Below, one piece after another: positions 1 to 15,900 of a stretch of DNA of 64,000 nucleotides. This DNA comes from an uncultured Gammaproteobacteria bacterium (lineage in GTDB: Bacteria; Pseudomonadota; Gammaproteobacteria; JACCXJ01): positions 1 through 64,000 of the forward strand of contig CAVXTM010000004.1 in the NCBI GenBank assembly GCA_963764725.1, written 5' to 3'. Under the pieces are notes generated by a model. That model had not been told where the DNA came from. It did not search any database and was given only the letters and a program-made list of their open reading frames with translations. Positions within the stretch are counted from its first letter, which is position 1, and each line of letters starts with the position of its first letter. Both the position numbers and the translations under genes were made by a program.

Positions 1-406
1 CCGGCAGATGTTTGGAATCTTTGCAGCGTTCGGCTTGAACCCTCTTCCGTAACTACGGTACCGCCCTTGACCCGTGCAAGCGCTACAACAATGGGTCTGC
101 GACCGGCGTTCCCTGAAGGACGCTTTTCTTTGAGAGGTTTTGCTGGAAGTGCGCCACAGCAAATATCTGCTGGACAAAGGCCGTCTCGGCTCGAGTGGGC
201 GTCAGGAAGATCGCCTTGTGTTGATCCACCCAATCCCTGATGAAGTCACTTCGATTGAGCCGATCCAGTTCATTCCGCACTTCCCGCGTAGAGATCAGAC
301 GCCCGTTTGCAACAAGCCGATCTACGGACTGCCACAGCGTTGGAAATCGGGTGGGGTAATAGTTGCCGAGCACTCGCAGACTGTTGTTATCCAGGACGTA
401 GATCAC
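1..406 (-). CDS. DUF4411-family PIN-like protein (runs off window; apparent frameshifts near 40 and 90)
   Basis: MIYVLDNN..NYYP..FPTLW N-terminus. Correcting two homopolymer indels gives ADPFVVALARVKGGTVVTEE...KIPNIC, the usual C-terminus. Overlaps the stop of the ImmA gene. Confidence 0.75.
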
Positions 407-1581
407 TAAGACGCTGCTCTTTTCATGAACAGCTCCTCAAGCGCGGTCAAGCTACGGACCTTCACGCCGAGGTAATCAGCAAGTTGGTCCCTTGAAATCG
501 AGCCTTGGTAATACTTGCCGAAAGCCAGTGACATGAAATGCTCGCCCAGATAACTGGCTTTGGTCAGGTAGTAATCGCCGCCACCCTCACCTTCACCGAC
601 CGATACCTCAGTCTCTTCCCTCCATTCGGATACCCGATTGCGATATTCGGACGCCGAAATACGGTGCAGGTCCCGATACTTCCGCAAAATGACCAGCCGA
701 CTGACCTTGTATCGGTTCGCTAATCGCGACAGGGTAAAGTCGTCCGGAGCTTGCGGCAGGTCCTTCACTTGAGCGGCGAAGTCAGCATTTGGAACCAGCA
801 AAGCCGCGGAAAAAGCGTTGCACCGCTGCTCAAGAAGTTTGGCACCTTGAGACAGCCCGTCCATGTAGTCGTCGCCAAATTTGGTGATTGACTCCGTATC
901 GAAAAGAAGATGGGCCAACTCATGGAACAGGCTGAAGATTTGACGCTGCTTCGCAGTCGAGTTGTTAATGACGATGACCGGAAACTCATCGTCGCGAAGA
1001 CAGAATCCGGAAACGTCCTTCTGCTTGAAGGAACGTTTGAAAACGAAAATTCCGGAGTCCTCCACCTTTGAACGCCATGCCTTTAGCGCTTCATCCGCTG
1101 TACGCCATTGCAGTTGCTGATCGAGCCCGACGGTCAAATACTCACGAACAAATGCGGCAAGCGCGGCGAAAGACCGATCGGTGAGACTAGACACATCACG
1201 CAGTAGGCGCTGCTTGCTCGGATTGACGCCAACGGTAAGTTCTTTGAGAGCGAGTTGTGTCGCCTGTGCCTCGCGCACGGCATACAGGGTGTCAGGAGAA
1301 AGATGTTCCAATTCGAAGGCAGGTAAGGTCCGGAAGAACCTTTTCGGATCGCGCTCCTCTGGTGGCTCGGGAAAGAAGAACAGCGCAAGAGGGCGTTTAT
1401 AGAGCGAATAAGCGATTCGTTCGAGCTGCGAGTACGTCGGCGCGCCAATGCCCTGCTCCCACCCTTCTATTACGGTCGCGTCTTTGCGCAGCGTAAGCGC
1501 GACATCATCGACAGAAAGACCTGCACGCTCCCGTGCCCATTGGAGCACTTTCCCCGAAAGCCCGGCGACCTGTTCAGCCAT
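406..1581 (-). CDS. XRE HTH + ImmA/IrrE-family Zn metallopeptidase
   Basis: N-terminal HTH (LQWARERAGLS...), RQIFSLFHELAH HExxH motif, EQRCNAFSAALLVP. ATG at 1581. Confidence 0.9.
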   Translation of the reverse strand: MAEQVAGLSGKVLQWARERAGLSVDDVALTLRKDATVIEGWEQGIGAPTYSQLERIAYSLYKRPLALFFFPEPPEERDPKRFFRTLPAFELEHLSPDTLYAVREAQATQLALKELTVGVNPSKQRLLRDVSSLTDRSFAALAAFVREYLTVGLDQQLQWRTADEALKAWRSKVEDSGIFVFKRSFKQKDVSGFCLRDDEFPVIVINNSTAKQRQIFSLFHELAHLLFDTESITKFGDDYMDGLSQGAKLLEQRCNAFSAALLVPNADFAAQVKDLPQAPDDFTLSRLANRYKVSRLVILRKYRDLHRISASEYRNRVSEWREETEVSVGEGEGGGDYYLTKASYLGEHFMSLAFGKYYQGSISRDQLADYLGVKVRSLTALEELFMKRAAS

Positions 1582-1907
1582 GATGCGGCCCCTTTCTCTG
1601 TGGCGACCATTTTGCACTAGGCTCCCGACCGGTGGGTGCAATCGCGCCTTCCGCCTTCATCTTCGACATACTTTGCCCTGGGCACCTTGAACAGCTCGCC
1701 GCGCACCTCGTTGAGCTCGAACGGGTCCGCTTCGCTGATGCGGCGGTCGGCTTAGCGATCCAGAAAGTCCACGAGCCATTTCTTGTTGGATTCTACCTCC
1801 GTGGTTGGGCGTAGAAGTATTCTGCGCTCCATGCGGGCCGTAGAATATAGGCCCCTATACTCCACGTCGGCGCCGCAAGTTGCAAGAACTGTATTCTCGA
1901 ACGGAAA

Positions 1908-2111
1908 TCAACCTATGCAGCGCGCGTAGGGCGAAAACGTCTCGACGTAACGCCGTTGCCTCTCGGCGTAGATGGTGTTGAACGCCAGCGACGATTTCCC
2001 CGATCCCGACACACCGGTGACCACGATCAGCTCGTTCAGCGGCAGCTCGAGGTCAAAACCCTTCAGGTTGTTCTGCCGGGCGCCTTTAATAAGGATGTGG
2101 TCGTGCGACAT
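1908..2111 (-). pseudogene. uvrA: excinuclease ABC subunit A, 5' fragment
   Basis: [10 protein letters not shown]...[34 protein letters not shown], then an abrupt end. Confidence 0.9.
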
Positions 2112-2172
2112 GAGAAGCGGCGGAAAGCTAAGAAAGCCGCGAGTATAACGGGCAACGCAGAGCGGAGCACCG

Positions 2173-2480
2173 GTGGACGATACGTCGTGCTCGCGCCCAA
2201 CCGCTGGAAGCTCGGGAAAGGGGTGCGGGTCGTGAACCAGACGCTGAACGGATTAGGGTTGGAACAACATCCCGAGAAAACGTTTATCGGTAGGATAGAA
2301 CAAGGCTTTGATTTTTTGGGCTATCACCTTCGTCCAGACAGGCTTGCCGCGGCCAAGACGGTTGAGCGTTTTCGTTGAACGTGCGAGCCCGCTTTATGAG
2401 CGCAAGCCGGGGGAGACTTTCGACTCCTCCCGGCTTGGACGGTATGTGCAACGGTGGCTCAGGTAGGCCCGAGCTGGGTT
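2173..2480 (+). pseudogene. group II-like reverse transcriptase, 3' remnant 1
   Basis: Starts at VDD (xDD motif), then [17 protein letters not shown]...HPEKTFIGRIEQGFDFLGY...RLGRYVQRW. Contains frameshifts and a stop. Confidence 0.8.
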
Positions 2481-2603
2481 TTCGGAGGGAGTGATAGAAG
2501 TGTGACCCCATTGCCGCAACTATCTCATTGTGGGCGGTGGCTGCCTTGGCACACCTCCATTATTAACCTATCAAATACCGTTGATTTCTATCCATTGCAC
2601 TTA

Positions 2604-2900
2604 CTAACAATGGCCACACGGCCAATTGTTATCGATGTTAAATGCTTTGTTGTATATTGCTCTATGCATAGCCATTTCTATGGCGTGCGCCATTGTTGGT
2701 GATATATAAATTCCCCCTCTGGTCTTATCCAGCTGGATTTCTGTTAATCTCATTTTTATGTTTGAGTCATTATTTCGGTCCTGCACCGTTTGGTAACGAT
2801 GTCTGGTAGAAGTGCTTGATTCATTCGCAGCCACCACTGGTGTTAGGCCTGTGAGGGCGACCATCAGGCTAAAGATTGCAATGTATTGTCGCTGTTTCAT
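2604..2900 (-). CDS. secreted precursor peptide 1 (Sec signal + pro-region + LTEIQLDKTRGG + 35-aa core)
   Basis: AAGGAG RBS. Signal MKQRQYIAIFSLMVALTGLTPVVAA is paralogous to 3278-3556 and 4673-4939. Confidence 0.8.
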   Translation of the reverse strand: MKQRQYIAIFSLMVALTGLTPVVAANESSTSTRHRYQTVQDRNNDSNIKMRLTEIQLDKTRGGIYISPTMAHAIEMAMHRAIYNKAFNIDNNWPCGHC

Positions 2901-3053
2901 TTCTACTCTCCTTCAATATTGAATTAACAAACATGGGTGTACCACGCTAAGTCCCGGACGTCCACAACCTTCCCCGCGGTGACTGCGTCCATTTGGTGTG
3001 CCGTGAGTTCGATTGTCTGGGGTGGGACGGGGTCGGAATGAGAATTCGCGGGC

Positions 3054-3127
3054 CCGGGGAGACACTTTCGAGTCTCCCCGGCTTGGTAGGTACGTACAAC
3101 GGTGGTTCAGGTGGGCCCGAGCTGGTT
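3054..3127 (+). repeat. RT 3'-end remnant 2 (hairpin + ~45-nt tail only)
   Basis: ccggggagac-actttcga-gtctccccgg perfect 10-bp stem, then a tail encoding RLGRYVQRWFRWARAG. Homologous to 2404-2480 and 4124-4194. Confidence 0.85.
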
Positions 3128-3277
3128 ATGGTTGCGTGCGCTTGGAGAACGGGGCCAGCCTGGTTTTCGCCTCGCTGAGCGTGAGGTCAAGCTTTGCCAA
3201 ACCGTCGCCGAGTATTGACGTGGCCAATTTCTTCAACTCGATCCCTCACAGGTTATGATGATGTGTCCAGTGACCCC

Positions 3278-3556
3278 TCATAGCCCCGCACATGCTATGT
3301 GTCTGCAGGTTACTCCGCGGCCATCGGAACCGTAGGGCGGGGGTGAGAGTTGTTTGTCCTCATTTATCATACCACCATATAATTTGTCCATTTGCTCGGG
3401 CGACAGTCTATACCCTGGGCTACTCTCGAACTGCCGCGTGTCTGGTTGGATTCGCTCACCACGTGATGTTCTTTCTGCATCCGCCACTACCACGGGCGAC
3501 AGACCAATGAGCCCCATTATCATGGTCAAGGCTGTGATATATTGTCGCTGTTTCAT
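3278..3556 (-). CDS. secreted precursor peptide 2 (Sec signal + pro-region + LSPEQMDKLYGG + 30-aa core)
   Basis: AAGGAG RBS, MKQRQYITALTMIMGLIGLSPVVVA signal. Confidence 0.8.
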   Translation of the reverse strand: MKQRQYITALTMIMGLIGLSPVVVADAERTSRGERIQPDTRQFESSPGYRLSPEQMDKLYGGMINEDKQLSPPPYGSDGRGVTCRHIACAGL

Positions 3557-3769
3557 TTCTCTCTCCTTCAATAATGAATTAACAAACATGGGTACACGAT
3601 GGTCCCTGCCGGTTCTCTCGCCTCTACTACCCAGTAAGGAATATTTGATATAGGCGCTGGGCCCCGGGTCCCATCTTGCAACGCGAATATAGAGGGGTGA
3701 AAGGATTTGATCTGTGAAATATTTCACGGAAAAAGTGTGAAATATTCACAAAATCTGTTGTGGAACACT
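3557..3769. repeat. conserved ~210-bp upstream region of precursor 2
   Basis: Closely similar to 4940-5153. The first ~40 bp are also present at 2901-2941. Confidence 0.9.
3713..3750. promoter_or_regulatory. tandem palindromic operator-like sites
   Basis: GTGAAATATTTCAC (perfect palindrome, 3714-3727) and TGTGAAATATTCACA (3736-3750). Repeated at 5098-5135. Confidence 0.6.
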
Positions 3770-3949
3770 GGGCTAATGGAAGACTTTCAATGAGAGGGTC
3801 CATTGAGCTTTTAACTAGATCCAACCTTGCCCTGACTCATTGCGCAAAATGAGGGGGTTTCCTGAGGGTGGGCATTAGCCTCCTAATCCGTGCACCTCCT
3901 GTCGCTCCGACGCCGCGCGTGCCCCTGGCGCCCGCGGGAGGAGACCTCC

Positions 3950-4194
3950 ACCAGACGCTGAACGGATTAGGGTTGGGAAAAACATCCCGAGAAAATGTTG
4001 ATCGGTACGATAGAAAAACCTTTGATTTTTTGGGCTATCACTTTCGCCCAGGCAGGCTTGCCGTGGCCAAAGACGGTTGAGCGTTTCGTTGAATGTGCGA
4101 GCCGGCCTTATGAGCGGAAGCATGGGGAGACTTTCTAGTCTCCCCCGGCTTGGTACGTACGTGCAACGGTGGTTCAGATGGTCCCGGGCGGGGC
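3950..4194 (+). pseudogene. group II-like reverse transcriptase, 3' remnant 3
   Basis: [11 protein letters not shown]...FDFLGYHFRPGRLAVAK...RLGTYVQRWFRWSRAG, hairpin ggggagact..agtctcccc. DNA aligns to 2236-2480. Confidence 0.8.
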
Positions 4195-4672
4195 TCGGCG
4201 AGGTCCGCCTCTTGTGGGTTTGGCACAAGGGGTTTCGCCGTAGCGTATGAAGGTTGTCTGGCGGCCGCCGCCGAAGTGGGTGGACCGGCTGTCTTTGGGC
4301 TTTGGTAGAATCCCAACCCCGAGATCACGTCAACCAAAAGCGAATGGTCACACACCAACATCCTTCGCCCCTCACCACCCCCCATTACAACAAGGTGCCG
4401 GCTGCGCAACACACACCTCGCGCCGGTACCCCCTATCCTCAGGTCACCCAGACCTCTTCAATCTCGTCTGTGGATACACCTCATCCCACACTCTCGAGGG
4501 GACACACCTAAACAACAATCTACACCGCGCTACAAACTCGTCTTCATTGCGGGACCTTGGGTATACGCGCGACGGCCCGACATCCCTGGTGCTTCTCTAT
4601 ATAACCCTGCCTCACCTGCGCGTCGCCCCCGAAGCTACGCCATCCAATAACACCCCGACATCCCGTCCGTCA

Positions 4673-4939
4673 CTACCGTATCCGATCATATAGTATGTGC
4701 TCGGCCGCTTGCTTGAACGCGCCGGTGAACCTGGTCAAACGGTGGAGAGTCTCTCCGGCATGGACTCTGTCCAACTGCGCTTGCCCTAGTTCGTATCGTT
4801 GCGGGCTCTCTCTATCTTGTCGGGCCTCCTGTATCCTACCACTTACTGATGTGCTCCCCGCATCCGCCGTTACAATTGGTGACAGACCCGTGAGGGTCAT
4901 TATCAGACCAAAGATTGTGATATATTGACGCTGTTTCAT
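4673..4939 (-). CDS. secreted precursor peptide 3 (Sec signal + pro-region + LGQAQLDRVHAG + 26-aa core)
   Basis: AAGGAG RBS, MKQRQYITIFGLIMTLTGLSPIVTA signal. Confidence 0.8.
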   Translation of the reverse strand: MKQRQYITIFGLIMTLTGLSPIVTADAGSTSVSGRIQEARQDRESPQRYELGQAQLDRVHAGETLHRLTRFTGAFKQAAEHILYDRIR

Positions 4940-5153
4940 TTCTCTCTCCTTCAATAATGAATTAACAAAGATGGGTGTACGATGGTCCCCTGCCGGTTGT
5001 CTCGCCTCTACCACGCAATAAGGAATATTTGATAGAGGCGCTGGGCCCCGGGTCCCATCTTGCAACGCACATATAGAGGGGTGACCGCAATTTGGTCTGT
5101 AAAATATTTCACGGAAAAAGTGTGAAATATTCACAAAATCTGGTGTGGAGCAC
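4940..5153. repeat. conserved upstream region of precursor 3, including palindromes at 5098-5135
   Basis: Direct repeat of 3557-3769. Confidence 0.9.
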
Positions 5154-5267
5154 TTTGAATGGAGGGACCATGCTATGCACGCTTGCTGAGCGCGTTACTG
5201 CGCTACCCGCGGTACTGACGCCGGGGGGCGCCCGCCTCGTCCAAGGAGATGCAGCCCGACTTCATTC

Positions 5268-5885
5268 ATGCGAACTTGGATCCCCATTGCTCTGATCCTC
5301 AGTGCCGCGGTCGGGGTGCCCTTGCTGGCCGTCGAACGGGGGCCCGTCGAATCGCTCCTGGAAATGCGGCGAGATCGAGTGGTGGTTCAGAAGTGGGACT
5401 TAAGTTGTGGCGCCGCGGCGCTTGCCACTCTACTGAATTACCAGCACGGCGACCCAGTTGCGGAGAGGGAGATCGCGCGGGCGCTGATGCAACGCCGGGA
5501 ATACCTGGCCGATCCGTTGCGGGTGCGGGTGCAGCAAGGGTTCTCTCTGCTCGACCTCAAGCGCTACGTCGATAAGCGGGGTTATGAGGGCATCGGCTAC
5601 GGCCGGCTTACGCTTCAGGACCTGATCGAACAGGCCCCCATTCTGGTGCCGCTCAGCCTGCACGGTTACAATCACTTTGTCGTGTTCCGCGGCAGGCGCG
5701 GGGATCGGGTACTGATTGCGGATCCCGCCTGGGGGAACCGTACCCTGCGGGTAGAGAGATTCGAGGAGGCCTGGATTGACTCTCCAGAGATCGGTAAGGT
5801 AGGTTTCGTGGTGGTGGGGCGTGAGGGCAGCACGCCGCCTAATCGCCTCGCCCCTCGCGCTAGTGATTTCGTGATGTTGCGGTAA
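5268..5885 (+). CDS. stand-alone C39-family peptidase with signal peptide (FapD-like)
   Basis: QKWDLSCGAAALATLL (Cys), YNHFVV (His), IADPAWGN (Asp), GFSLLDLKRY. AAGGAG upstream. Confidence 0.9.
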   Translation: MRTWIPIALILSAAVGVPLLAVERGPVESLLEMRRDRVVVQKWDLSCGAAALATLLNYQHGDPVAEREIARALMQRREYLADPLRVRVQQGFSLLDLKRYVDKRGYEGIGYGRLTLQDLIEQAPILVPLSLHGYNHFVVFRGRRGDRVLIADPAWGNRTLRVERFEEAWIDSPEIGKVGFVVVGREGSTPPNRLAPRASDFVMLR

Positions 5886-5908
5886 GCCATCAATCAGAAA
5901 GGACGCAA

Positions 5909-7186
5909 ATGACACCACCCAGGGGTTCGCGCCAGCTGATGCAAGGCGCGGCCTTAGGCGCATCTTTCGCTTTGGTGGGACTGGTTGTGGCCGGGCCCCA
6001 GACAAAGCAGGCCGGCTCTCATCCTCAGCCGACGATGGAGGAACTGATGCGAAGGCTCGAGGAGCGCGACGCCCTCATTGTTGATCTGCAGCGACGCGTT
6101 GGAGAGCTCGAGCGGCAAATCGCCACGCCGCCCGTTAACCCGCAACCGGTGGCTGCCAAGCCCGTGCCCTCAGTGCCGCCGGTAGCCTCATCGGCTGAGC
6201 AGAAGCCATCGAACGCGGAGCGTCGGAGCGACAGGATGTCGCCGGCCAGTACAGGGACGTACGCATCGACACAAGCCGAAGAGGCTCCAGCGGCTGCAAG
6301 CAGCGCGGCGCCGGCAGTGCCCGGCCAATTCGAGGTCGATGAGGAGGCCGCCGAGCGCGCGCTGGAGCAGACACTGGTCGTGACGGGCGCACTCCTTCTG
6401 CCATTTGGACAGGCCGACATCCAGCCCAGCTTCACCTATATCCGAAGCGAGGAAGAAGCACCTACCCTCTTAGCGCAAGGTGTGGCTGCATCGCAAGATG
6501 TTCGCCGCAATACCTTCATCGCCGATCTTTTTCTGCGCTTCGGTCTACCCTTCGACTCACAACTGGAGGTCGGCATTCCTTATCGATATGTAGAGCAGCA
6601 AGTGGTCACAGAAGTAGATTTCGGCGCGCGGGCCGAGACGGAGTCTCATGGCTCCGGATTCGGCGATCTCGGTTTCGGCCTGGCCAAGGGGTTGCTGGAA
6701 GAGCGCAACTGGTGGCCGGATCTAATCGGTAGGGTGACATGGGATACTGACTCCGGTGAAACCTCCGATGACGGCTTTTCGCTTGGCGGCGGCTTCCACG
6801 AGCTCCAGGGTTCGTTAACCATGACCAAGCGCCAGGACCCGCTGGTGTTCATCGGCAGCGCCTCCTACGGGACTACATTCGAAAAGGACGATTTCAATCC
6901 GGGCGACCAGCTTGGCTTCTCGGTCGGGGCGGTGCTGGCCGCCAGTCCTGAGACCTCGCTGCGCGTTGTTCTCAATCAGACATTCGTCAGCGAGCTGGAG
7001 GACGAGGATAGGACCATCAGCGGATCCGATCAGGTGTTCGGAACGCTGAACTTTGGGGCCTCCTCGATCATCGGCCGCGGGAAATTTCTCGACCTGACGG
7101 CTGGGATAGGTTTGACCGATGAGGCCCCCGATTACTCAGCAGGGATTTCTCTCACGATTAGCTTCGACGTCCCCACTCGCTTCTAG
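5909..7186 (+). CDS. outer-membrane beta-barrel transporter with N-terminal coiled coil (FapF-like)
   Basis: Signal, heptad segment MEELMRRLEERDALIVDLQRRVGELERQI, Pro/Ala linker, RALEQTLV..GALLLP, GFGD, DPLVF, IGLTDEAPD, terminal Phe. Confidence 0.8.
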   Translation: MTPPRGSRQLMQGAALGASFALVGLVVAGPQTKQAGSHPQPTMEELMRRLEERDALIVDLQRRVGELERQIATPPVNPQPVAAKPVPSVPPVASSAEQKPSNAERRSDRMSPASTGTYASTQAEEAPAAASSAAPAVPGQFEVDEEAAERALEQTLVVTGALLLPFGQADIQPSFTYIRSEEEAPTLLAQGVAASQDVRRNTFIADLFLRFGLPFDSQLEVGIPYRYVEQQVVTEVDFGARAETESHGSGFGDLGFGLAKGLLEERNWWPDLIGRVTWDTDSGETSDDGFSLGGGFHELQGSLTMTKRQDPLVFIGSASYGTTFEKDDFNPGDQLGFSVGAVLAASPETSLRVVLNQTFVSELEDEDRTISGSDQVFGTLNFGASSIIGRGKFLDLTAGIGLTDEAPDYSAGISLTISFDVPTRF

Positions 7187-7219
7187 CATTCCTATTTTGG
7201 CGGATCATCGGCAAGGTCA

Positions 7220-7412
7220 TTCGTGCATGATCAGCTAGCAGACCTGGAAGCTCCGGAATTTCAGCTTCCGGATGGCCTTGGCGGAACAGTACCACGGCAA
7301 CTATGGAAACAGGCGCGGGCTATTCGAGAATCTATCGTGGTGACCCTCCCCAGCCTGCCTGAAGAGCCTGGGCAGACGTGGCTTAATGAGACTTGGTGGT
7401 TTTTGGCCACAG
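7220..7412 (+). repeat. 193-bp copy of an internal segment of the patatin gene (34429-34621)
   Basis: Direct alignment by eye, about 3 mismatches. Confidence 0.95.
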
Positions 7413-8032
7413 CGAGCGTAGCGTGCGCTGTGCGCACGAATAACTACAGTTACCGCGTGGCCACATTTCGTCGTGCTGTCACGCCTGGGGCGACGTACTT
7501 TTTTACTGTCAATACCTATCGACGTCAGGCGCTATTGACCGATCCACCCGTGTACTCTGCGCTGAGCGAGGCACTACGGGCGGTAAAAGGTCCGCATCCG
7601 TTTACCATCGATGCCTTTGTCTTGTTGCCTGACCATCTGCACTGCCTGTGGACGTTACCCGAAGGCGATGCGGACTATGCATCGCGCTGGAACTTGGTGA
7701 AACGGAGGGTAAGCCAACAGGTCAGGCACTTGATTACGACCGATCTGACCTCATCACGCCGCAAGCGACGGGAATTGGGGTTATGGCAACGCCGCTTTCT
7801 GGGAACACCCGATACGCGACGACCTTGACTTTGCTAAACACGTCGATTACGTCCATTGGAACCCGGTTAAACATGGTTACGTTATCCGGGTGGCCGACTG
7901 GCCGTATTCGAGCTTTCATCGTTATGTGACGCGAGGTCTCTACCCTTTAACATGGGCCAGCCATGCGGAAGACGATGCGGGGCGGTATGGCGAGACGCTC
8001 TAATCGTGCGCATAGCGCACGCTACACTCGCT
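7411..8032 (+). mobile_element. REP-associated tyrosine transposase (RAYT/TnpA-REP) at 7457-8003 with flanking inverted REPs
   Basis: GATYFFTVNT, LPDHLHCLW (HUH), WQRRFWEH.IRD, YVHWNPVKHG after a +1 frameshift near 7798. 29-bp IR agcgagcGTAGcgtgcgctgtgcgcacga at 7411-7439 and 8004-8032. Confidence 0.9.
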
Positions 8033-8267
8033 AGCACGCGGTAAGCGTTTCCCTTGATGTCGCGCTGCTCGCGTGCACGGCGCTCGCACGAGCAACTACG
8101 GGGCAGATCTTGTTCCTTGCATACACCCGTAGCCACAGCACCTCGCGCATCCCTCAAATTAACCATTCAAAGGATCTGAACCTCCTCATAGCTTCCTGGA
8201 GAAGCACCATGGACCGCGCGCACCGCAGCTGCGATATCGTTCTGTATGCGGAGCCAGCTTGTCGATG

Positions 8268-8486
8268 TCACAACAACAGTGGCAATGCGTCGCGCGCAAG
8301 GTTCTGCTGATGTATGAGGTTCTTATCGGTCGTGACAAATACTTCAAACCCATCTTGTTCTGCGGCGTCAAGCAATTCGCTGTTCTTGAGCTTCGACCAG
8401 CCACGTTCGTGTGCAGTCGAGACTTCGTGCTGCGTCAACGATTCCCGCAAGGGCACCGGTACTCCCTGATCAAACAGTACGCGCAC
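8268..8486 (-). CDS. DUF5615/VapC45-like PIN toxin (probably frameshift-truncated)
   Basis: MRVLFDQGVP...GWSKLKNSELL..AE..GFEVFVTTDKNL.HQQNL. Downstream of DUF433. Confidence 0.8.
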   Translation of the reverse strand: MRVLFDQGVPVPLRESLTQHEVSTAHERGWSKLKNSELLDAAEQDGFEVFVTTDKNLIHQQNLARDALPLLL

Positions 8487-8708
8487 CTAAGCGGGAGCCA
8501 GCGCACTCCGAGCAGCATGTTCGAGGACGGCGCGAACTTGTTCGAGCGAAACGCGGGGAAACCACTGCACGAACTGGGATAGCTGCGCGCCATCCTCTAG
8601 GTTCTCAAACAGCGCAGCAACGGGCACACGTGTGCCACGAAATACCCACGCGCCACTGACGCGCTGCGGATCCCGCTCAACGGCTGTACAGGTCAACCAA
8701 TTTATCAT
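8487..8708 (-). CDS. DUF433 antitoxin-like protein
   Basis: VERDPQRVSGAWVFRGTRVPVAALFENLEDG. Confidence 0.85.
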   Translation of the reverse strand: MINWLTCTAVERDPQRVSGAWVFRGTRVPVAALFENLEDGAQLSQFVQWFPRVSLEQVRAVLEHAARSALAPA

Positions 8709-8813
8709 AAAGGTAATATTAGCACTGACACCTTTTGGCAGCTATGGAGTTATACCCTGAGCTGACTGTACATTTTCACCATCCGCAAATGCTTCGCCAT
8801 CGGACACCTGCCG

Positions 8814-9066
8814 GTAGGGCGCACCACGTGAGCGTATTGCGCCGAATGGAAGACGGTGGGGAGTCAGATGCGCCTGGATGACCTGTGCCTATGTCGCCGA
8901 ACGGAGGCAGGTGCTGCATCGAAAGTGGCGTGGGCTAAATCGCCCCAATGCCTCAGCCGTCTTGCGCCGCTCGGCCGTGCATCTGGATGCGCCATGGACG
9001 GGGAGGATGGGCGGGTTCGCGGAATACGGTGATTTGGCGCAATACGCTAACGCTATTGCGCCCTAC
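8814..9066. repeat. inverted pair of GTAG-type REP sequences (REPIN-like)
   Basis: gtagggcgcaccacgtgagcgtattgcgcc (8814-8843) vs reverse complement gtagggcgcaatagcgttagcgtattgcgcc (9036-9066). Confidence 0.75.
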
Positions 9067-9116
9067 GAAATGGTGCACGAGATGCTGGGCTAACCACGAC
9101 CTTTCATGGTGGGCGG

Positions 9117-9497
9117 TCAAGCTGCCCGGTGATCGACTGTGCGATAGGGTTGGATAAGAGCGTCGGTGGGGATCTCCAGTCCCACGGTGAGGCGGCGGAT
9201 CATGCGCAAGGTCAGCGGGCGGCGCCTTGCCATCACCTCGGAGACCCGCGCCCGGCTGCCGATGAACGGCTCTAGATCTTTCCGGGTGAGCCCGCGGCTT
9301 TCCATGCAGTGCTCGATGGCCGCGATCGGATCGGGCGGCGGGATAGGATAGTGCTCCCGCTCGAACGCTTCGACGAGGATGCAGAGGAGCTCCAAGCGGT
9401 CGCTCTCGGGCGTCTCGGGCTTGGCCTCCCACAACCGCTCGATCGCGCGCAGCGCTCGCTTGTAGTCGCCTTCGGACTTGATCGGTTTGATGTCCAT
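9117..9497 (-). CDS. higA: HigA-type HTH antitoxin
   Basis: MDIKPIKSEGDY..AL..IE.LW...DPIAAIEH.MESRGLTRKDL..IGSRARVSEV. Confidence 0.85.
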   Translation of the reverse strand: MDIKPIKSEGDYKRALRAIERLWEAKPETPESDRLELLCILVEAFEREHYPIPPPDPIAAIEHCMESRGLTRKDLEPFIGSRARVSEVMARRRPLTLRMIRRLTVGLEIPTDALIQPYRTVDHRAA

Positions 9498-9683
9498 GGT
9501 ACCGATGGTCTCTGGCTTGATGCGGTCGTAAGCGGCGTGCGTGCCGATAAAGCGTACGAATCCGATGCCTTTGTCGTAGCGCATGGCCACTAGCAAGCGG
9601 TAAGCGTTTCCCTTGGTGTTGAACACCACGCGGTTATTGGCGATGAAGCTCGCGTTCCGATAGTCAGTAGGTGCCCACTGCAT
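9498..9683 (-). pseudogene. higB: HigB toxin, 5'-truncated
   Basis: NRVVFNTKGNAYRL...FVRFIGTHAAYDRI. N-terminus missing. Confidence 0.75.
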
Positions 9684-9735
9684 TGGGGTGTAAAACTGGT
9701 AAAGATGACTTGGGTAGCCAGCAGCGAGTGGCCAC

Positions 9736-11622
9736 CTAGTTCAGGGACGAAGGCTTCCCCGTCGAGAAGCCTTCATAAAGGACCGCAAGTTCCCGAACGA
9801 GGACTCCCATGGACCAGTCATCAGAGACAATGTGGTGCATAGCCAGCAACAGCACATGCTCCTCCTGGCCCAACCGCAATAAGACGGCGCGAAAGAGCGG
9901 CCCTTGGGCCAGGTCGAAGGGCCGTCTCGCCTCCTCGCCAGCCAGCCGTCGCGTCTCCGCTTCGCCTTCAGTCTTGGGCAGTCCACTCAGATCCACCACC
10001 GGCAGCGTCAAGGCCATCTTCAGAGCGATATCTTGAACCGCTTGTCCGTCCACGACCGAGACACTTGTCCGCAAGGCTTCGTGGCGCCGCACGATCTCGT
10101 TGAAGCTTTGTTCCAGTGCGGTCCCATTTAGTGGACCAACCAGTCGATAGGTCGCCGCAATCGTATAGGCCGGGTTGCCCGGCTCCGACTGGTGCCGGAA
10201 CCATAGCCGCTGCTGCGCAAAAGAAAGCGGCAATTGCTGACCGCGTGGACGCCGCTTGATCGGCGGAGCCCGCGTCTCCCCGTCGGCCCGAATCAAGGTC
10301 TTTTTCCGAAGCTGCAATACCAAGAGCGCTTGCTGCTGCGGAGTAAGATCAGCGACACTCTCGCGCACCTTGCCCGTGTCCGAGACTGTGGCGCGCCAAC
10401 CCCGGCCTGTCTGCCTCCCGCCCCATTGATTACCGCTCGCGCTGGATTCCGCCGCGAGGCGAAGAAGCAGATCTTCGAAGGGCACGACGCTCAAGCCGGA
10501 AACAAACTTCGAGGCGGCCTCGCGCGCGGCGGCTGACTGTCTTTCGTATAAGTCGCGATCTGCAAGCAAGCAGCTAAGCGACTCCTGCCACGGGCCGATG
10601 TCCTGCTTCGGAACGACCGGGGCCGGAAGCTGGTTTTCCTCCAGCCGGTCTGCAAAATCCTCGACCGGCTGGACGGGCAGTAAGTAATCCGTCCCCAACT
10701 TGGCCTCAATGAGCCCACCATAGTTACTCGCTAAGACAGGAATCCCGCGCAGCATGGCATCTACCACAGCCATCCCAAACCCCTCAATCCAGAGCGAGGG
10801 CATAAGGAGGACGCGGGTCTGACAGAAAATATCATCGAGATGCTGGCGATTCTTCCACAAGCTCACATTAGGGAGCGCACCGAGGGCGCGCCGCTCCGCA
10901 GCGGTCGTACCCCAGCCTGAGAGCGTCGCAAATTGCCTCTCGGGCAGCGCTCGGGCGAGCGCCAAGAAGATGGAGATCCCCTTCACGGCACAAGCATTCA
11001 TCATCAAGACAGAGCCATGATTGATGTGACCCAAATTGGGGAACGGCCCGGAACCGTAATGTGGCGGGTGGTGGACGAATGACTTGAAACCGGTCCATTC
11101 TTGGATGTAAGCGGCGACAAACTGGCTAATCGTGATAATGGCGGAGGCTCGCCCGACGAGTTCAGTCCTCCTCTTCCCGGGATATAAGCTGGCCGGCCCG
11201 AACGGGAACATCTGCGGCGTATGAGCGAGGTAGATGACTCGGGAAGGGCAGGCCTTTAACGCGGCCTCCAACAGGCTCTGCGACCGATCTTCAGATGAGA
11301 CCATGGTCCAATCTGGCCCAAACTCACGAATTTGCTTCACCAGGTAGGTACATAGCCGAGCCGGCTCGACCACTGCGTGGACCTCAACGCCATTCAAGTT
11401 AAAAACATCGATCTCGCCATCGGAGCTCACGCGAATCCCTTCGGCAGCTAACTCCTCAAGGAGCTGTGGGTGGCTTAATGAACTGGGGGTGGCGAGCGCG
11501 GGCACAACCAGACAAAGCGAGTGTTGCCTCGCAGCAAGCGCTTCGGCCAGGCTGCGATTGGATCGGTTGGCACCACCATAGACGCGGGTATATGGCAGAT
11601 TCATCGTCAACAGAATCTTCAT
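9736..11622 (-). CDS. GT4 glycosyltransferase fused to a truncated NRPS condensation domain
   Basis: GT-B motif LMPSLWIEGFGMAVVDAMLRGIPVLAS, then PLSFAQQRLWF...RHEALRT...MHHIVSDDWS. Ends mid C domain. Confidence 0.85.
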   Translation of the reverse strand: MKILLTMNLPYTRVYGGANRSNRSLAEALAARQHSLCLVVPALATPSSLSHPQLLEELAAEGIRVSSDGEIDVFNLNGVEVHAVVEPARLCTYLVKQIREFGPDWTMVSSEDRSQSLLEAALKACPSRVIYLAHTPQMFPFGPASLYPGKRRTELVGRASAIITISQFVAAYIQEWTGFKSFVHHPPHYGSGPFPNLGHINHGSVLMMNACAVKGISIFLALARALPERQFATLSGWGTTAAERRALGALPNVSLWKNRQHLDDIFCQTRVLLMPSLWIEGFGMAVVDAMLRGIPVLASNYGGLIEAKLGTDYLLPVQPVEDFADRLEENQLPAPVVPKQDIGPWQESLSCLLADRDLYERQSAAAREAASKFVSGLSVVPFEDLLLRLAAESSASGNQWGGRQTGRGWRATVSDTGKVRESVADLTPQQQALLVLQLRKKTLIRADGETRAPPIKRRPRGQQLPLSFAQQRLWFRHQSEPGNPAYTIAATYRLVGPLNGTALEQSFNEIVRRHEALRTSVSVVDGQAVQDIALKMALTLPVVDLSGLPKTEGEAETRRLAGEEARRPFDLAQGPLFRAVLLRLGQEEHVLLLAMHHIVSDDWSMGVLVRELAVLYEGFSTGKPSSLN

Positions 11623-11745
11623 CAGACCTCTCTGGACAGTGCTGAAAAGGGCTACTTTTAGGGAAGCTCTGCAAAAGTTACTGCGCAGTCCATCTGCTTT
11701 GTCGCGTACTCGCTCGTCGCTCGCCTACTGAGCTGTCGGGCCGAT

Positions 11746-12906
11746 TTAAAAATTCTTGCCATGTCGCTCGTGCAGTTCTTCCAGTATTTTAATGAGACAC
11801 TTCGCTGATTGTTCCCAGGTGAAATCCCTGGCAAGCCGCGCCCTCGCCGTCGGCAATCCCTCACCCGCCGTTCTAATGGCTTGACGTACAAACTCCGCCG
11901 CGACTTCTTCATCCGGCTCCCACCAATCAGACCCTCTAAAGAGCTTCCCTAAGCCCTTGCCCCCATTAAAATCTGCTGGAATCCTTTGAGAGGGAATCAT
12001 TTGAGCCACAGACTCATCCAGATAAGCGGTATACGCAGTGTGTTCGGGAGCGATGAGATGTAAACCCGCGGCCCCCGCCTCCATCATGGGAAAGTCCCAA
12101 CCTTCTCCATATGACATGCTCCAGTAATGTGTTGCTGCCGCATAGAGACTGGGCATTTGAGACTCAGTCAAAACTTGGTCATAAAAAACTACAGGGGCAG
12201 CTTTCCTTCTCGACTTCCCGATCTCTCTCTCGATTGCGGCGAGGGTTCGCTTGAATCGATCAGGCCACCACCAGCGATATCTATAACCACTCAATTTCAA
12301 GATCAGAATTGTGTCATCATTCGCACTGGTTGTTTTTATCCAGACCCGCAGCAGCCCCCAGATATTTTTTCTGGGCGCGGAAATAAAATCAGATACATTT
12401 AGAAATCTTGTCTTGTATTCGAGAACGCTGCGCTCCCTTCGGCACGCGAGCTTTAATGGCTCGACGCCCGGATGAAACCGATCCGAGTCAACCCCATGTG
12501 GACAGAGCCTGAGATGCTCTTCTGGAATTCCGCTTGCCATCCAAGCTCGCTTAGATGAATCGGTGGGCAGCACGACTAGATCCTGGCTCGAGCTGAGCTT
12601 TGCCCAGGTTTCGGGAATTCGCGTCGTTTCGAAGGTTGTGGAATTGACGTTGAGCATCCCTTCAACAATCCTCGCCTGATTCGGCAAACAAATATGCAGG
12701 ATAGCGCGAGAGCTGACCGGGCGGTCTAATGTATCGAACCAGGGGTCACGCTTCTCTTCGGGTAATGCGCCGACACTACCTGTGGGAAGATCTACGAGCT
12801 GCACACGAATTCCCAGTTTGTCCAACGCGCGTACGATTTCTCTGATATGGCCCCCATACCCAGAGGGGCGTCTATAGTGTCCAGAGATGATCAGCGATCT
12901 ACCCAT
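11746..12906 (-). CDS. GT4-like glycosyltransferase
   Basis: SGYGGH, PHGVD, RKN, SYGEGWDFPMMEA, FTWEQSA. Confidence 0.8.
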   Translation of the reverse strand: MGRSLIISGHYRRPSGYGGHIREIVRALDKLGIRVQLVDLPTGSVGALPEEKRDPWFDTLDRPVSSRAILHICLPNQARIVEGMLNVNSTTFETTRIPETWAKLSSSQDLVVLPTDSSKRAWMASGIPEEHLRLCPHGVDSDRFHPGVEPLKLACRRERSVLEYKTRFLNVSDFISAPRKNIWGLLRVWIKTTSANDDTILILKLSGYRYRWWWPDRFKRTLAAIEREIGKSRRKAAPVVFYDQVLTESQMPSLYAAATHYWSMSYGEGWDFPMMEAGAAGLHLIAPEHTAYTAYLDESVAQMIPSQRIPADFNGGKGLGKLFRGSDWWEPDEEVAAEFVRQAIRTAGEGLPTARARLARDFTWEQSAKCLIKILEELHERHGKNF

Positions 12907-12987
12907 CGGCGGTCATCGAGTTGTGAGACGTCCCATCCTGAGCAAATTTTCCGCGGTAAAGTGCCAACACAATATAGTCGAAGAGAG

Positions 12988-15900
12988 TCACTGTTCGCCT
13001 TCCGATACACTTAACCCGCGCTCCGCTTCAAGTAACGCTGTTACTTCATCTGGCGAGAGTTGTTTCAATTCCTCCAGTATTCGAGCCACTTCAGCCGGGT
13101 CTTCCTGATCGACCTGCGCCGCGGCGATCGCCGCACTGAGGTCGGTGATCGTCGGCGCATCGAAGAGGATCCGGAGCGGCAGTTGCACGTGAAAGGCTTG
13201 CTGGATCCGAAAGGCAAGCAGGGTGAGTAAAAGGGAGTGCCCACCCAACTCGAAAAAGTTGTCGCGGATCCCGATCCCCTCGAGGCCGAGTAACCCGCGC
13301 CAGATCTCGGCAAGCTCTTCCTCGACCGGGGTGCGGGGCGCGACAAAGGGGCTCTCTAAATCGGGCCTAGCCTGTTCGGGCGCCGGCAGCGCCCGCCGAT
13401 CCACCTTCCCACTCGGTGTCAGCGGCAGCGCCTCGAGTACGACGAAGCTCGCGGGCACCATATACTCGGGTAGCTTTTCCTTGAGGAAGCTCCGCATCTC
13501 ATTGGTTGCAGGGGCTGTCTCCGGCGTGACAACCACGTAAGCCACCAGACGCTGGTCGCCGGACCCTTCCTGACGGGCCGCCACTACCTCGCGTATCCCC
13601 GGATGCTGGCTGAGCACCGCCTCGATCTCGCCCAACTCGATGCGGTAACCACGAATCTTCACTTGATGGTCGCTGCGACCCAGGTAGACGAGCTCACCAT
13701 GGGATAAGTAACGGGCCAGATCACCGGTCTTGTACAGCCGAGCCCCGAACTCCTGGCTGAAGGGATTCGGAATGAACCTTTCAGCGCTGAGTTCTGGGCG
13801 GTTCAAATAGCCCCGGCTTAGCCCCTGCCCAGCCACATAGATTTCACCCGGCACCCCGATCGGGACTGGTTGCAGGTGCTCGTCCAGCAGATAAAGCTGC
13901 AAATCAGGGAGCGGCCGGCCAATGGGACTTCCTTTTTCCTGGCTCAGGTCGGCCAGCTTCAGTGGGCGAGAGGTGACATGGACGGTAGTTTCAGTGATCC
14001 CGTACATGTTGACTAACCGAGGTCGCTCATCGCCGTGGCGCTCAAACCAGGGCCGGAGCCGGTTGACTTCAATCGCCTCGCCGCCGAAGATGACGAGGCG
14101 CAGCGCCAGTTCTCCGACGCGATCCGGCCCGCTTTCCTCCTCGACCCGCATCAGTTGGTAGAAGGCTGAGGGGGTCTGATTGAGGACCGTCACCTGCTCC
14201 TGGCACAACAGTTCATAGAAGGAGTCAGGCGAGCGAGTCATCCAGCCGGGCACCACCACCAACCGCCCGCCGTAGATCAGCGCCCCCCACATCTCCCAGA
14301 CCGAGAAGTCGAAGGAGTAGGAGTGAAAGAGGGTCCACACATCTTCCTGGTCGAAATGAAACCAGGGGTCAGTGGCCGCGAACAGACGCGTGACATTGTG
14401 GTGGCTGACTAAGACTCCCTTCGGGCTCCCCGTCGAGCCGGAGGTATAGATGACATAGGCGAGGTTTCCAGCCGTCGCACCGCTGGCAGGATTTTCCTCA
14501 CTCTGGTTGTCCGTGATTTCCCGGTCTGCGTCCAGACAAACGGTCTTTGCCCGGTGCTGGGGAAGAGAGCAAACCAAGCGCTCCTGGGTTAACAGCACAG
14601 GCGCTTGGGTATCTTCTAACATGAAGGCCAGCCGATCTTTTGGATAGTCCGGATCCAGCGGCACGTAGGCTCCCCCGGCCTTGAGGATACCCAGCAGCCC
14701 GACCACCAGCTCCAACGAGCGCTCCAGGCAAATCCCCACCAGCACCTCGGGACCTACTCCCAGCTTCTGCAGGTGATGCGCCAGTTGATTGGCCCGGCGG
14801 TTTAGGTCCCCATAGGCCAGCCGCTCTCCCTCGAACTCGACTGCCACCCTCTCAGGCGTCCGTTCGACCTGTGTTTCGAACAGTTCGTGGATGCACTGGT
14901 CCGTCGAGTAATCCGCCTTGGTCTGGTTCCACTCCACAAGCAATCGATGCCGTTCGGCGGCACTCAAGAGCGGTAAGTCAGAGATGCGCTGCTCGGGATT
15001 TGCGGTGATGCCTTCCAGCAGAGTCTGGAAATGTATCAGCATTCGCGTCATCGTCCCTGCATCGAACAGATCCAAGTTGTACGTGAACAGACAACACAGC
15101 CCTTCCGGTTTCTCGACCACGTCGAGGAACAAATCTACTATGGCCACGCCGTTGTCGGTCTCGACATCTTCAATCCTCAGGCCCTGCACCTCGATGGCAT
15201 GTTTGGGGATATTTCTGAAGTTGAGCATCACCTGAAAGAACGGCGTCTGACTCAGATTCCGCGCTGGCTGGAGCTCTTCCACCAGCTTCTCGAACGGCAG
15301 GTCCTGGTGGGCATAAGCGCTTAAGGCCGTCTGGCGCACCCGGTCCAGCAGCTCCTGGAACGTGGGATCGCCCGACAGATCGGTGCGCAGCACCAGCGTA
15401 TTGATGAAGCACCCGATCAACTCCTCCGTCTCCACTCGCAGGCGACCGTTGGTGGGCGCGCCCACCACGATGTCCTCCTGCCCCGTATAGCGAGAGAGCA
15501 GCGTCTGGAAACCCGCTAGCAGCGTCATAAATAGGGTGACGCCCTCCTCACGGCTCAGCGCCTTGAGTCTCTCGGTCAGGCCTTTGGAGAGGACGAGCGA
15601 TTGCCCTGCGCCCCGATAGGTGCGGCTGGCCGGTCGCGGATGATCAGTGGGCAGCCCCAGCGCCGAGAGGGCGCCGGCCAACTGTTGCTTCCAGTAAGCG
15701 AGCTGCCGCTCGAGGAGCTTGCCCTGGAACCACTGCCGCTGCCAGGCCGCGAAGTCGCCGTACTGGATGGATAATTCTGGGAGGGAAGAGGCGCGCCCAG
15801 TAGTGAAAGCGTCGTAGAGCGTGCCGAGCTCTCGCAGGAGCACGCCCATCGACCAGCCGTCGAAGACGATATGGTGGATCGTCAGCAGCAGCACATGCTC

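Follow-up and report, generated by a model that had tools for sequence, protein, structure and literature searches.

Hairpins in the reverse transcriptase remnants of a gammaproteobacterial contig trace to a motif and stem-loop inside UG4 reverse transcriptase genes

Introduction

The window analyzed here, the first 64,000 nucleotides (nt) of contig CAVXTM010000004.1 from an uncultured Gammaproteobacteria bacterium (assembly GCA_963764725.1), contains three broken pieces of a reverse transcriptase (RT) gene, and each piece carries a hairpin. This locus raises the question of why a hairpin is found in every piece of a gene whose reading frame has decayed. A sequence-only reading, made by a model, had proposed that the shortest piece, a hairpin plus ~45 nt, is a cis-acting site kept as structured nucleic acid and not as protein, and had compared it to the target recognition of diversity-generating retroelements (DGRs). 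We traced the hairpins to RT genes of the UG4 class, in which an invariant motif of ~15 nt is followed directly by a stem-loop that covaries across the family. We put a rough probability of 55% on the reading that the window hairpins are inherited copies of this cis element of UG4 RT genes, that the relics most likely do not function now, and that the live element is most likely an RNA site of the RT.

RT remnants with a stem-loop at the same position

Three stretches of the plus strand align with one another (2187-2470, 3052-3127 and 3950-4193), and all are homologous 3' ends of one RT gene. When read in a patched frame, they give the C-terminal part of a reverse transcriptase; stops and frame shifts break all three. 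A DNA search of the whole assembly found six such remnants, the three of the window (A, B and C) and three on contig C14, and a stem-loop was present at the homologous position in 6/6. The remnants of the window and their elements are:

2187..2470, plus strand: RT remnant A, what decay has left of the 3' third of a UG4-class RT gene (profile positions ~210-305); its frame has stops and a frameshift
2392..2437, plus strand: copy A element, the motif remnant CTTTATGAGCGC (2392-2403) and then the stem-loop, seen as inverted repeat I9 and in the fold
3052..3127, plus strand: RT remnant B, the "minimal piece", a perfect stem and tail without the 5' motif
3950..4193, plus strand: RT remnant C, with weak protein-level homology back to ~3900 and the same 5' limit as remnant A
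4106..4151, plus strand: copy C element, a mutated motif (CCTTATGAGCGG) and then the stem-loop 4118-4132/4137-4151, seen as inverted repeat I2

In copy B, the shortest remnant, perfect 10-nt arms (3054-3063/3072-3081) are separated by 8 nt. The remnant starts 2 nt 5' of this 10-bp stem, and its homology to the other remnants begins at 3052-3056. Copy A has arms at 2403-2411/2429-2437, which extend to 13 pairs with one bulge (2403-2415/2424-2437), and the arms of copy C show 87% complementarity with a perfect 9-bp core. The stem of copy A is coding-like (GGGGGAG...CTCC-T-CCC), while the other copies have the perfect palindrome GGGGAGAC...GTCTCCCC. At the 3' side, homology among the copies ends at 2477/2478, 3125 and 4192/4193 in every comparison, directly past the codons for RW.RW.RAG. 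The sequence-only reading had reported a shortest remnant starting at a perfect 10-bp stem, stems of different sequence in the other copies despite their broken frames, and a sharp end of conservation after RW.RW.RAG. These observations were correct in every particular.

As a control for chance, 100 first-order Markov resamples of the window were used. The window has seven perfect hairpins of at least 10 bp with loops of 3-10 nt, compared to 0.86 ± 1.06 in the resamples (maximum 4). A single perfect 10-bp hairpin per 64 kb is unremarkable alone. What goes beyond chance is the homologous position in all six remnants of this genome, together with the covariation across the family described below. 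A terminator role, which had also been suggested, found no support: the flanks, read directly, have no T-run 3' of the stems on either strand, and the three hairpins are absent from the five terminator-like sites called in 1900-5400. The covariance models of Rfam 15 gave no match at E<=1 in window positions 1-12000.

Assignment of the parent gene to the UG4 class

Relatives of the remnants in metagenomes are 74-88% identical over 50 amino acids (aa). A 50-aa piece of copy A used as query returned only fragments and a few full-length metagenome proteins, at 64-88% identity. Two full-length relatives (P0005 and P0014, 329 and 351 aa) match the PADLOC profile RT_UG4 with E values of 2.4e-115 and 5.5e-109, scoring 382.9 and 362 bits and covering positions 3-305 of the 307 in the profile; the runner-up family reaches 134.5 bits. 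The remnants themselves match RT_UG4 at positions 210-305 (85.7 bits, C14) and 210-280 (72.1 bits, remnant A at C4:2181-2393). Their relatives carry YMDD, and the motif-4 region reads GISLGCPLSP. Judged by these matches, the parent gene is a UG4-class RT and not a DGR RT. Two other identities were tried and rejected, namely a group II intron (TIGR04416, 110.6 bits against a cut-off of 300, with no intron RNA match) and a retron (NF038233, 45.6 bits against a cut-off of 235). For the UG4 relatives, the NCBIfam group II, retron and Drt models were all below their cut-offs, and the NCBIfam matches list no DGR model.

Neither an intact catalytic core (YxDD) nor a full-length UG4 open reading frame (ORF) was found in this genome, which has only 3' remnants. 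No intact UG4 gene was present in the assembly (96.9% complete), where tblastn with pieces of the remnants returned only the copies on C4, the contig of the window, and C14. The best other RT_UG4 matches in the assembly are a generic RT (C2) and a CRISPR-linked RT adjoining Cas1 (C1). In the latter, the RT gene (G000:C1 653-2724, L008) is followed directly by cas1 (PADLOC Cas1, E 6.7e-84), as in a CRISPR-associated RT. A genome of the same family, G011, has an intact UG4 RT of 355 aa. According to the retrieved text of the literature, UG4 reportedly shows no enrichment in defence islands and has fimbrial genes as frequent neighbours (PMC9226505, PMC8934634); among the non-intron RTs, it alone was credited with a hint of retromobility (Simon and Zimmerly 2008, PMC2602772).

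The stem is kept as structure across the UG4 family

UG4 loci were gathered from species genomes (79) and from metagenomes (28); the metagenome scan was seeded by patterns from residues ~235-252 and is therefore biased towards 3' pieces. The segment between the codons for LYEQ and Y..RW was located in 78 places. Its main forms have loops of 10 residues (28 sequences) and of 6 residues (43 sequences), and there are a few others. Both forms have a DNA hairpin at the same position, and the residues encoded there are widely different. Long loops that fold at this place include EPGETFDSSR, KRRTGLAASP, QRTVREGTVR, GPGGGNASAR and ERERSESLSR, and short ones include GADEIR, GVDMIH and NATASR.

The short-loop class (41 sequences) was aligned by reading frame without gaps, and this alignment owes nothing to structure. 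Across its 9-pair stem, 88.9% of 369 cells were paired, versus 24-54% when the partners were slid by 1-3 columns. Both sides had changed in 40 cells (2-24 when slid), and the covariation score of 0.374 (at most 0.145 when slid) was reached by 0/500 shuffles. Codons were seen to change in pairs, from Ala GCG/Arg CGC to Val GTG/His CAC (L044, L089) and from Gly GGT/Ile ATT to GGC/Val GTC.

A frame alignment of the long class with a fixed register gave 71.1% paired cells compared to 67.9% at slide -1, with two registers in use. Since two registers blur a fixed-structure count, this class was moved to a model-based alignment. The covariance model that was built gave 87 matches at E<=0.01 in a search of 97 sources, and the resulting alignment has 83 distinct rows. 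In it, 84.8% of 796 cells were paired (32-55% when slid), with 158 double changes (13-48 when slid) and a score of 0.421 (at most 0.10 when slid) that 0/500 shuffles reached. The idea that the stem would covary among homologs thus held in both alignments, above the slid and shuffled controls. In the window, the model matches copy A at 2392-2457 (71.7 bits), copy C at 4106-4172 (49.9 bits) and copy B at 3051-3105, over model positions 13-66 only (26.9 bits).

The stability of the stem was also ranked without any alignment. A 44-nt window over the stem was within the most stable 5% of its own gene's windows in 43/77 genes (23/26 with the long loop, 18/43 with the short loop), and it was the single most stable window of the gene in 15/77. 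Three plasmid UG4 genes (Escherichia, Burkholderia and Salmonella; 32-39% identity to the query) keep CGGCTT(TAT/GAG)GAGC followed by a long hairpin, and two of these are found by the covariance model. The stem is also retained in AT-richer genomes, with model matches at a GC content down to 0.31-0.46. An integron attC site or a REP element was considered as well; the stem is present inside RT genes of many phyla without an integrase or RAYT partner.

Because the covariation alters amino acids on both sides of the stem, and because a stable local fold is conserved in position, these sequence comparisons support selection on the stem of intact UG4 relatives as nucleic-acid structure and not as protein. 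In the UG4 stem, it is the nucleic-acid structure that determines the protein sequence, and not the other way round. The proposal that the element is kept as structured nucleic acid stands in this form for the intact UG4 family, on the grounds of covariation and fold position, and not demonstrably for the relics of the window.

An invariant motif directly precedes the stem

The ~15 nt just 5' of the stem (CGGCUUUAUGAGCAA, codons R-L-Y-E-Q) do not vary, not even at synonymous sites, in contrast to the free variation of the rest of the gene. In a codon alignment of 50 full-length UG4 genes, Arg is CGG in 35/35, Leu is CTT in 50/50, Tyr is TAT in 40/46, Glu is GAG in 50/50 and Gln is CAA in 35/43. 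The short class has two further frozen codons, Gly GGT (25/30) and Ala GCG (30/33). Other conserved Leu and Arg columns use at least three codons at near-maximal entropy, and in Leu columns outside the motif the commonest codon accounts for at most 22 of about 48. Synonymous variation is normal again 3' of the stem, where Tyr is TAT in 26 genes and TAC in 24.

By this codon usage, the ~45-nt tail is conserved only as protein, and RW.RW.RAG owes its conservation to its place as the protein's last helix. The unit first proposed, a hairpin plus ~45 nt, therefore had to be redrawn: the synonymous sites of the tail are free, and the constraint lies on the ~15 nt 5' of the stem, which copy B lacks. 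The nucleotide-level element, as delimited from these sequences, is about CGGCUUUAUGAGCAA plus the stem-loop, within the last ~100 nt of UG4 RT genes.

An AlphaFold2 model from a 24-sequence alignment (mean predicted local distance difference test score, pLDDT, 80.6) places the residues encoded by the stem, 291-301, in a loop with a block mean pLDDT of 53, between helices 276-290 and 302-315. The protein would tolerate the demands of the stem because, in this model, the stem encodes a low-confidence loop between the last two helices.

Other explanations of the element were tried and rejected on sequence. Programmed frameshifting at CUU-U, an internal AUG, a -10-like promoter in the motif and a CsrA site each fail to explain the invariant 15 nt together with the covarying stem. 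No second copy of the motif or of its complement was found elsewhere in the 78 loci beyond other RT copies. With Rfam, five intact UG4 loci gave only two tRNAs above the gathering score, and the RT 3' end had no match. For 14 long-loop UG4 genes, no pairs of a conserved RNA structure were predicted in the upstream 270 nt, and this region is unalignable; the test is a weak one. The motif plus stem-loop appears to be undescribed in Rfam 15 and in a full-text search of the UG4 literature, the supplements of PMC9226505 lying outside that search.

History of the copies in the window

The remnants lie among genes for peptide precursors. The features on which their history depends are:

1908..2111, minus strand: 5' fragment (67 codons, from the ORF list) of a gene that we take to be uvrA-like from reading its translation, at the edge of the segment shared with C14
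2604..2900, minus strand: peptide precursor gene 1, with a Sec-type signal peptide, a double-glycine-type leader and a variable core
2952..3050, minus strand: piece from within another precursor gene (similar to C14 12622-12897), adjoining RT remnant B
3278..3556, minus strand: peptide precursor gene 2, from its ORF and leader comparison
3711..3746, no strand: paired palindromes AATATTTCAC/GTGAAATATT, inverted repeats upstream of precursor gene 2
4673..4939, minus strand: peptide precursor gene 3, from its ORF and leader comparison

The products of precursor genes 1-3 have a common Sec-type signal peptide and a leader ending in ...Q(L/M)D...GG/AG, and their cores are unrelated. The same perfect palindrome pair, 9 nt apart, recurs at 5096-5131 before precursor gene 3; the paired palindromes look like a shared operator. 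A paralogous locus on C14 has four precursor genes (9730-15290), and the two contigs share a segmental duplication of window 1908-2938 and G000:C14 7000-10067, in which 2071-2938 equals C14 9200-10067 (97.8% over 871 nt), followed by rearrangements. The uvrA-like gene is full length on C14.

The repeat unit consists of a remnant, a variable spacer and core, a conserved leader and promoter with the paired palindromes, and a junction segment of ~170 nt. Remnants A and C and C14 copies 1 and 2 all extend 5' to one RT position, about VLAP. Because of this common 5' limit, their ancestor was a single remnant, truncated before it was duplicated along with the unit. C14 copy 3 has the junction segment without its end and lacks the first ~100 nt of the remnant, which marks it by sequence as an internal deletion derivative. 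Copy B is 97.3% identical to C14 copy 3 over 3052-3125, and its downstream sequence is like that of C14 copy 2. It is preceded by 99 nt (2952-3050) from the middle of a different precursor gene; this piece matches C14 12700-12796 at 88.9%, and tblastn of the corresponding peptide gave 75% over 28 aa at 3049-2966. From this arrangement, copy B reads as a rearrangement junction. The "minimal retained piece" is this single junction, with no evidence of selective retention.

By this history, a ~290-nt 3' RT remnant lay tail-to-tail with a gene for a secreted double-glycine peptide precursor and was copied with it by tandem and segmental duplication; later it was shortened, in C14 copy 3 by an internal deletion and in window copy B by a rearrangement. 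The perfect-palindrome state arose once, since it is common to the copies other than A, and the perfect 10-bp stem of the younger copies probably arose after the coding constraint was lost. The palindrome may, in addition, have made a break at this point more likely. Template-switch correction of a quasi-palindrome can yield a perfect palindrome without selection. Such correction and palindrome-associated deletion would explain both the step from the imperfect stem of copy A to the perfect one (B, C and C14 copies 2 and 3) and the breakpoints at the stem foot. This is a mutational process, not a function.

Fragments in other genomes

PREFERENTIAL retention of the 3' piece in the UG4 family was not seen in the data gathered without bias. 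In five multi-copy genomes, a search with the RT_UG4 profile, which cannot detect pieces as short as copy B, gave about 9 3'-only versus about 9 5'-only RT fragments (rows sorted by hand). Fragments of the two kinds are about equally common. A 16-nt motif scan of genome contigs gave at least 120 matches, most by chance, with about 22 UG4-derived among the matches listed. By these matches, short 3' relics are common, but every match has the motif by design, and the scan is therefore no test of preferential retention. One Acidobacteriota genome (G041, which holds L018, L020, L023, L032 and L088) has five or more near-full UG4 copies along with numerous 5' and 3' fragments. It also has dozens of identical copies of another RT, and its UG4 ORFs lack a conserved stop after ...AG(L).

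What the element may do

In a live UG4 gene, the invariant ~15-nt motif and the stem-loop directly after it, whose sequence drifts while its pairing stays, would form a site in the RNA transcribed from the RT gene itself, recognized by the RT and used by it as an anchor, primer or template boundary. In retrons and DGRs, the RT reads structured RNA from its own locus. Because the bacterial RTs whose mechanism is known do so, we take the element to be such a site, an assignment that, within the overall reading, has somewhat less than an even chance. The element would act as RNA and not as DNA, from the sense strand and by RT binding, and its relics in the window would have lost this function. 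No sign of a present function of the relics was found. A motif with a covarying stem-loop inside an ORF gives a concrete, mutable handle on UG4, an RT class without a known function, and says where to look for the RNA or DNA read by the enzyme. The covariance model can be used to find live and dead UG4 elements, and the element is a plain example of nucleic-acid structure setting the sequence of a protein loop. For the window itself, the hairpins would be relics in a rearranging bacteriocin-like locus.

Several points weigh against this reading. The model-based alignment leans towards the structure of its own model, a bias from which the short-class count is free because that class was aligned by reading frame without gaps. 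Much of the covariation separates two clades, those with short and with long loops, and independent events are fewer than the cell counts. The inner stem pairs favour neither strand (61 G-U and 60 A-C cells), and only the two outermost pairs do so: they have 91 G-U and 0 A-C, a sense bias that could reflect Gly and Ile/Leu codons. A few genes, those of the EPSR variant (L020 and L107/L108), have mostly lost the stem; since some of these genes are full-length, the stem is not indispensable. In the window and its relatives, the remnant of G009, an unpublished genome, starts exactly at GGCTTTATGAG (GGCTTTATGAGCAA) and is followed by an orthologue of precursor gene 2. With copy B, this makes two independent truncations near the 5' side of the element, a hint of palindrome-prone breakage or of retention. 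Among the matches listed from the motif scan, 4/18 motif-bearing relics with a tail are free of RT sequence in the 450 nt upstream (4 more have <35 codons), which could mean that the element was retained for an unseen use. Lastly, the stem of the younger relics is more perfect than the coding version, and selection could also explain this.

As an observation on the EPSR variant, in L020 (6865-6912) and in L107/L108, 18 nt comprising the inner stem and loop are deleted, which leaves LYEQ-EPSR-LG and a 5-bp mini-stem. These are full-length or partial UG4 genes.

The relic stem-loops could be in use here, as RNA 3'-end, stability or insulator elements for the convergent precursor genes, or as homology and breakpoint sites for cassette shuffling. 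This is near to the precursor-transcript terminator of the sequence-only reading. The stem is kept by all six remnants of this genome, and the perfect palindrome of the younger copies folds on both strands. The truncations of copy B and G009 adjoin the element, the remnants and the leader and promoter blocks are the conserved flanks of hypervariable core-plus-spacer segments, and copy B looks recombinant between C14 copies 2 and 3. However, the stem has no T-run on either strand, and the terminator-like site of gene 3 (4412-4395) precedes the remnant. Gene 1 and C14 pep4 are arranged differently, and the C14 pep4 unit has no remnant after it. Identity between A and C is no higher in the stem region than in the rest of the remnant (alignment A1), and the perfection of the quasi-palindrome needs no selection, given template-switch mutation. 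We consider present use unlikely. That the stem has no cause of its own, being a by-product of protein constraint and GC-rich codons (Pro-Gly-Glu versus Ser-Arg-Leu) or of chance, is scarcely credible. The arms of the closest relatives do encode a recurring PGE...SSRLG, and one perfect 10-bp hairpin per 64 kb is near the expectation of 0.86, but pairing stays while the amino acids differ widely, paired codons change together, and slid controls are only 24-55% paired. The encoded loop is a low-confidence linker, and AT-richer genomes keep the stem too.

Two further readings make the element part of a mobile or diversifying system. UG4 could be retromobile, with motif, stem and tail as the 3' end at which reverse transcription starts, as in LINE/R2-like elements (LINE, long interspersed element), and with the remnants as 5'-truncated retrocopies that carry the neighbour by read-through. 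Homology often stops after ...AG(L), both here and in the multi-copy Acidobacteriota genome, the RT ORF lacks a conserved stop (tails past RW run for 3-146 codons), and many genomes have several copies and many fragments. The hint of retromobility in Simon and Zimmerly (2008), as far as the retrieved text of PMC2602772 goes, fits as well, and many metagenome matches are 3' pieces. The seeding of the metagenome scan, however, favours such pieces, and the fragments of the five multi-copy genomes are not skewed towards the 3' end. Remnants A and C share one 5' limit, the shorter ones being deletion derivatives with a shared upstream junction segment, and in L030/L033/L053 and L018/L032 homology continues past the RT into the neighbour gene. 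Retromobility is, in our judgment, quite improbable. Still less probable by far is the frame in which the hairpin was first seen, a DGR-type target-recognition site for mutagenic homing into the peptide genes. Its geometry is loosely similar, with a stem downstream of the 3' end of a gene that has a hypervariable C-terminal part, and UG4 RTs elsewhere lie tail-to-tail with variable secreted proteins. Against it, the best profile of the RT is RT_UG4 and not DGR, motif 4 reads GISLGCPLSP where the DGR signature contains SQ, paralogous variable regions differ by indels and at bases of every class, and the RT is dead in this genome. A self-comparison of the window and C14 loci gave unit repeats only and no template/variable repeat pair. 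None was found in four intact loci either: L030 and L018 have no such repeat, L133 has direct repeats inside the neighbour gene, and the repeat in L038 is two RT copies. No Avd-type accessory gene was present among the Pfam matches of window proteins or UG4 neighbours, although no scan was aimed at Avd.

Comparison with known systems

DGRs resemble UG4 in that a short conserved sequence, the initiation of mutagenic homing (IMH) site, adjoins a downstream hairpin near the 3' end of a variable gene with an RT gene nearby, and an RNA spacer primes the cDNA. They differ in that UG4 belongs to another RT clade, has no template/variable repeat, and carries its element within the RT ORF on the strand opposite the variable gene. 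R2 and stringent-type LINEs have a stem-loop near the 3' end of the RT-encoding RNA and truncated genomic copies, as UG4 does; in contrast, UG4 shows no excess of 5'-truncated copies in the five multi-copy genomes. In retrons, a bacterial RT likewise reads a structured RNA of its own locus (msr/msd), but that RNA precedes the RT gene, and the retron profile score, as given above, is far below its cut-off.

The DRT2/UG2, DRT3/UG3+UG8, DRT9/UG28 and UG27 systems are of the same RT superfamily, and UG4 was covered in the same survey, as far as its retrieved text goes (PMC9226505). For those systems, that text describes a conserved stem-loop RNA encoded beside the RT and needed for function (PMC9226505). 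Those RNAs are described there as intergenic, up- or downstream of the RT, whereas the UG4 element is inside the ORF and sets the sequence of a protein loop. The retrieved text of PMC9226505 makes no mention of a UG4 RNA.

Neighbours of intact UG4 RT genes

At 60/78 RT 3' ends, a minus-strand ORF of at least 100 aa ends -300 to +250 nt from the RT stop; some of these ORFs may not be real genes. A Pfam scan covered 37/60 of these convergent ORFs, mostly the longer ones (roughly >=170 aa, with one of 1,920 aa left out), and one same-strand ORF. The matches were PEP-CTERM (6, one below cut-off), eCIS core (extracellular contractile injection system; 5), Collar (2, one below cut-off) and single matches to Lcl_C, collagen/TIG, TcA_TcB_BD, Aspzincin_M35 and Amidohydro_2; 17 had no family. 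On the Escherichia and Burkholderia plasmids, the UG4 RT lies within fimbrial operons, which agrees with the fimbrial context given in the retrieved text of PMC8934634 and PMC9226505. On the Salmonella plasmid (L133), the UG4 RT ORF (3920-5038) and a convergent inverse-autotransporter gene (4940-8918) overlap at their 3' ends by ~100 nt, and the motif and hairpin are ~30-100 nt from the stop of the autotransporter gene. In one Pirellulaceae genome, the paralogous RT plus PEP-CTERM modules L030, L033 and L053 are near-identical except for a patch of ~175 columns with indels in the neighbour gene (A7 columns ~170-345). No template-like repeat was found in L030.

A more speculative idea is that a UG4 RT and its tail-to-tail neighbour, a secreted or surface protein with a hypervariable patch, are a two-gene module, in which motif and stem-loop would be the RT's site on a read-through RNA antisense to the 3' part of the neighbour. 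It was suggested by the layout of the window array, which is that of the Pirellulaceae loci (conserved part, hypervariable core, RT), a likeness that is suggestive only, and we regard the idea as a long shot. If true, UG4 would be a diversification or cassette-copying retroelement unrelated to DGRs, and the precursor array of the window, with its conserved leaders, hypervariable cores and RT remnants, would be a fossil of such activity.

Other features of the array and its surroundings

Two genes on the plus strand complete the array:

5268..5885, plus strand: stand-alone C39-family peptidase with an N-terminal signal-like segment (Pfam PF03412, E 5.8e-14)
5909..7186, plus strand: outer-membrane-type protein of the Phenol_MetA_deg family (Pfam PF13557, E 9.3e-06)

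From these gene identities, the array 2604-7186 looks like a bacteriocin-like system with periplasmic processing. A tblastn search for the precursor peptides, the C39 peptidase and the outer-membrane protein near the 107 UG4 loci of other genomes found none, so the link between RT and peptides is local to this lineage. Contigs of relatives from soil and sediment sequencing runs (18 runs, with shares of at most 0.09; four contig sets, one guessed to be RNA) cover mainly the leader and promoter block 3464-3770 and are uninformative on expression and RNA ends.

Beyond the array, an ORF at 7223-7828 is weakly similar to IS200/Y1 transposases (Pfam 19.2 bits, cut-off 23) and may be of the REP-associated kind. 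At 406-1641 on the minus strand there is a gene with a helix-turn-helix and an M78 peptidase domain (ImmA/IrrE-like), followed by a small downstream ORF on the same strand (83-406). This gene pair (83-1641) looks regulatory or toxin-antitoxin-like.

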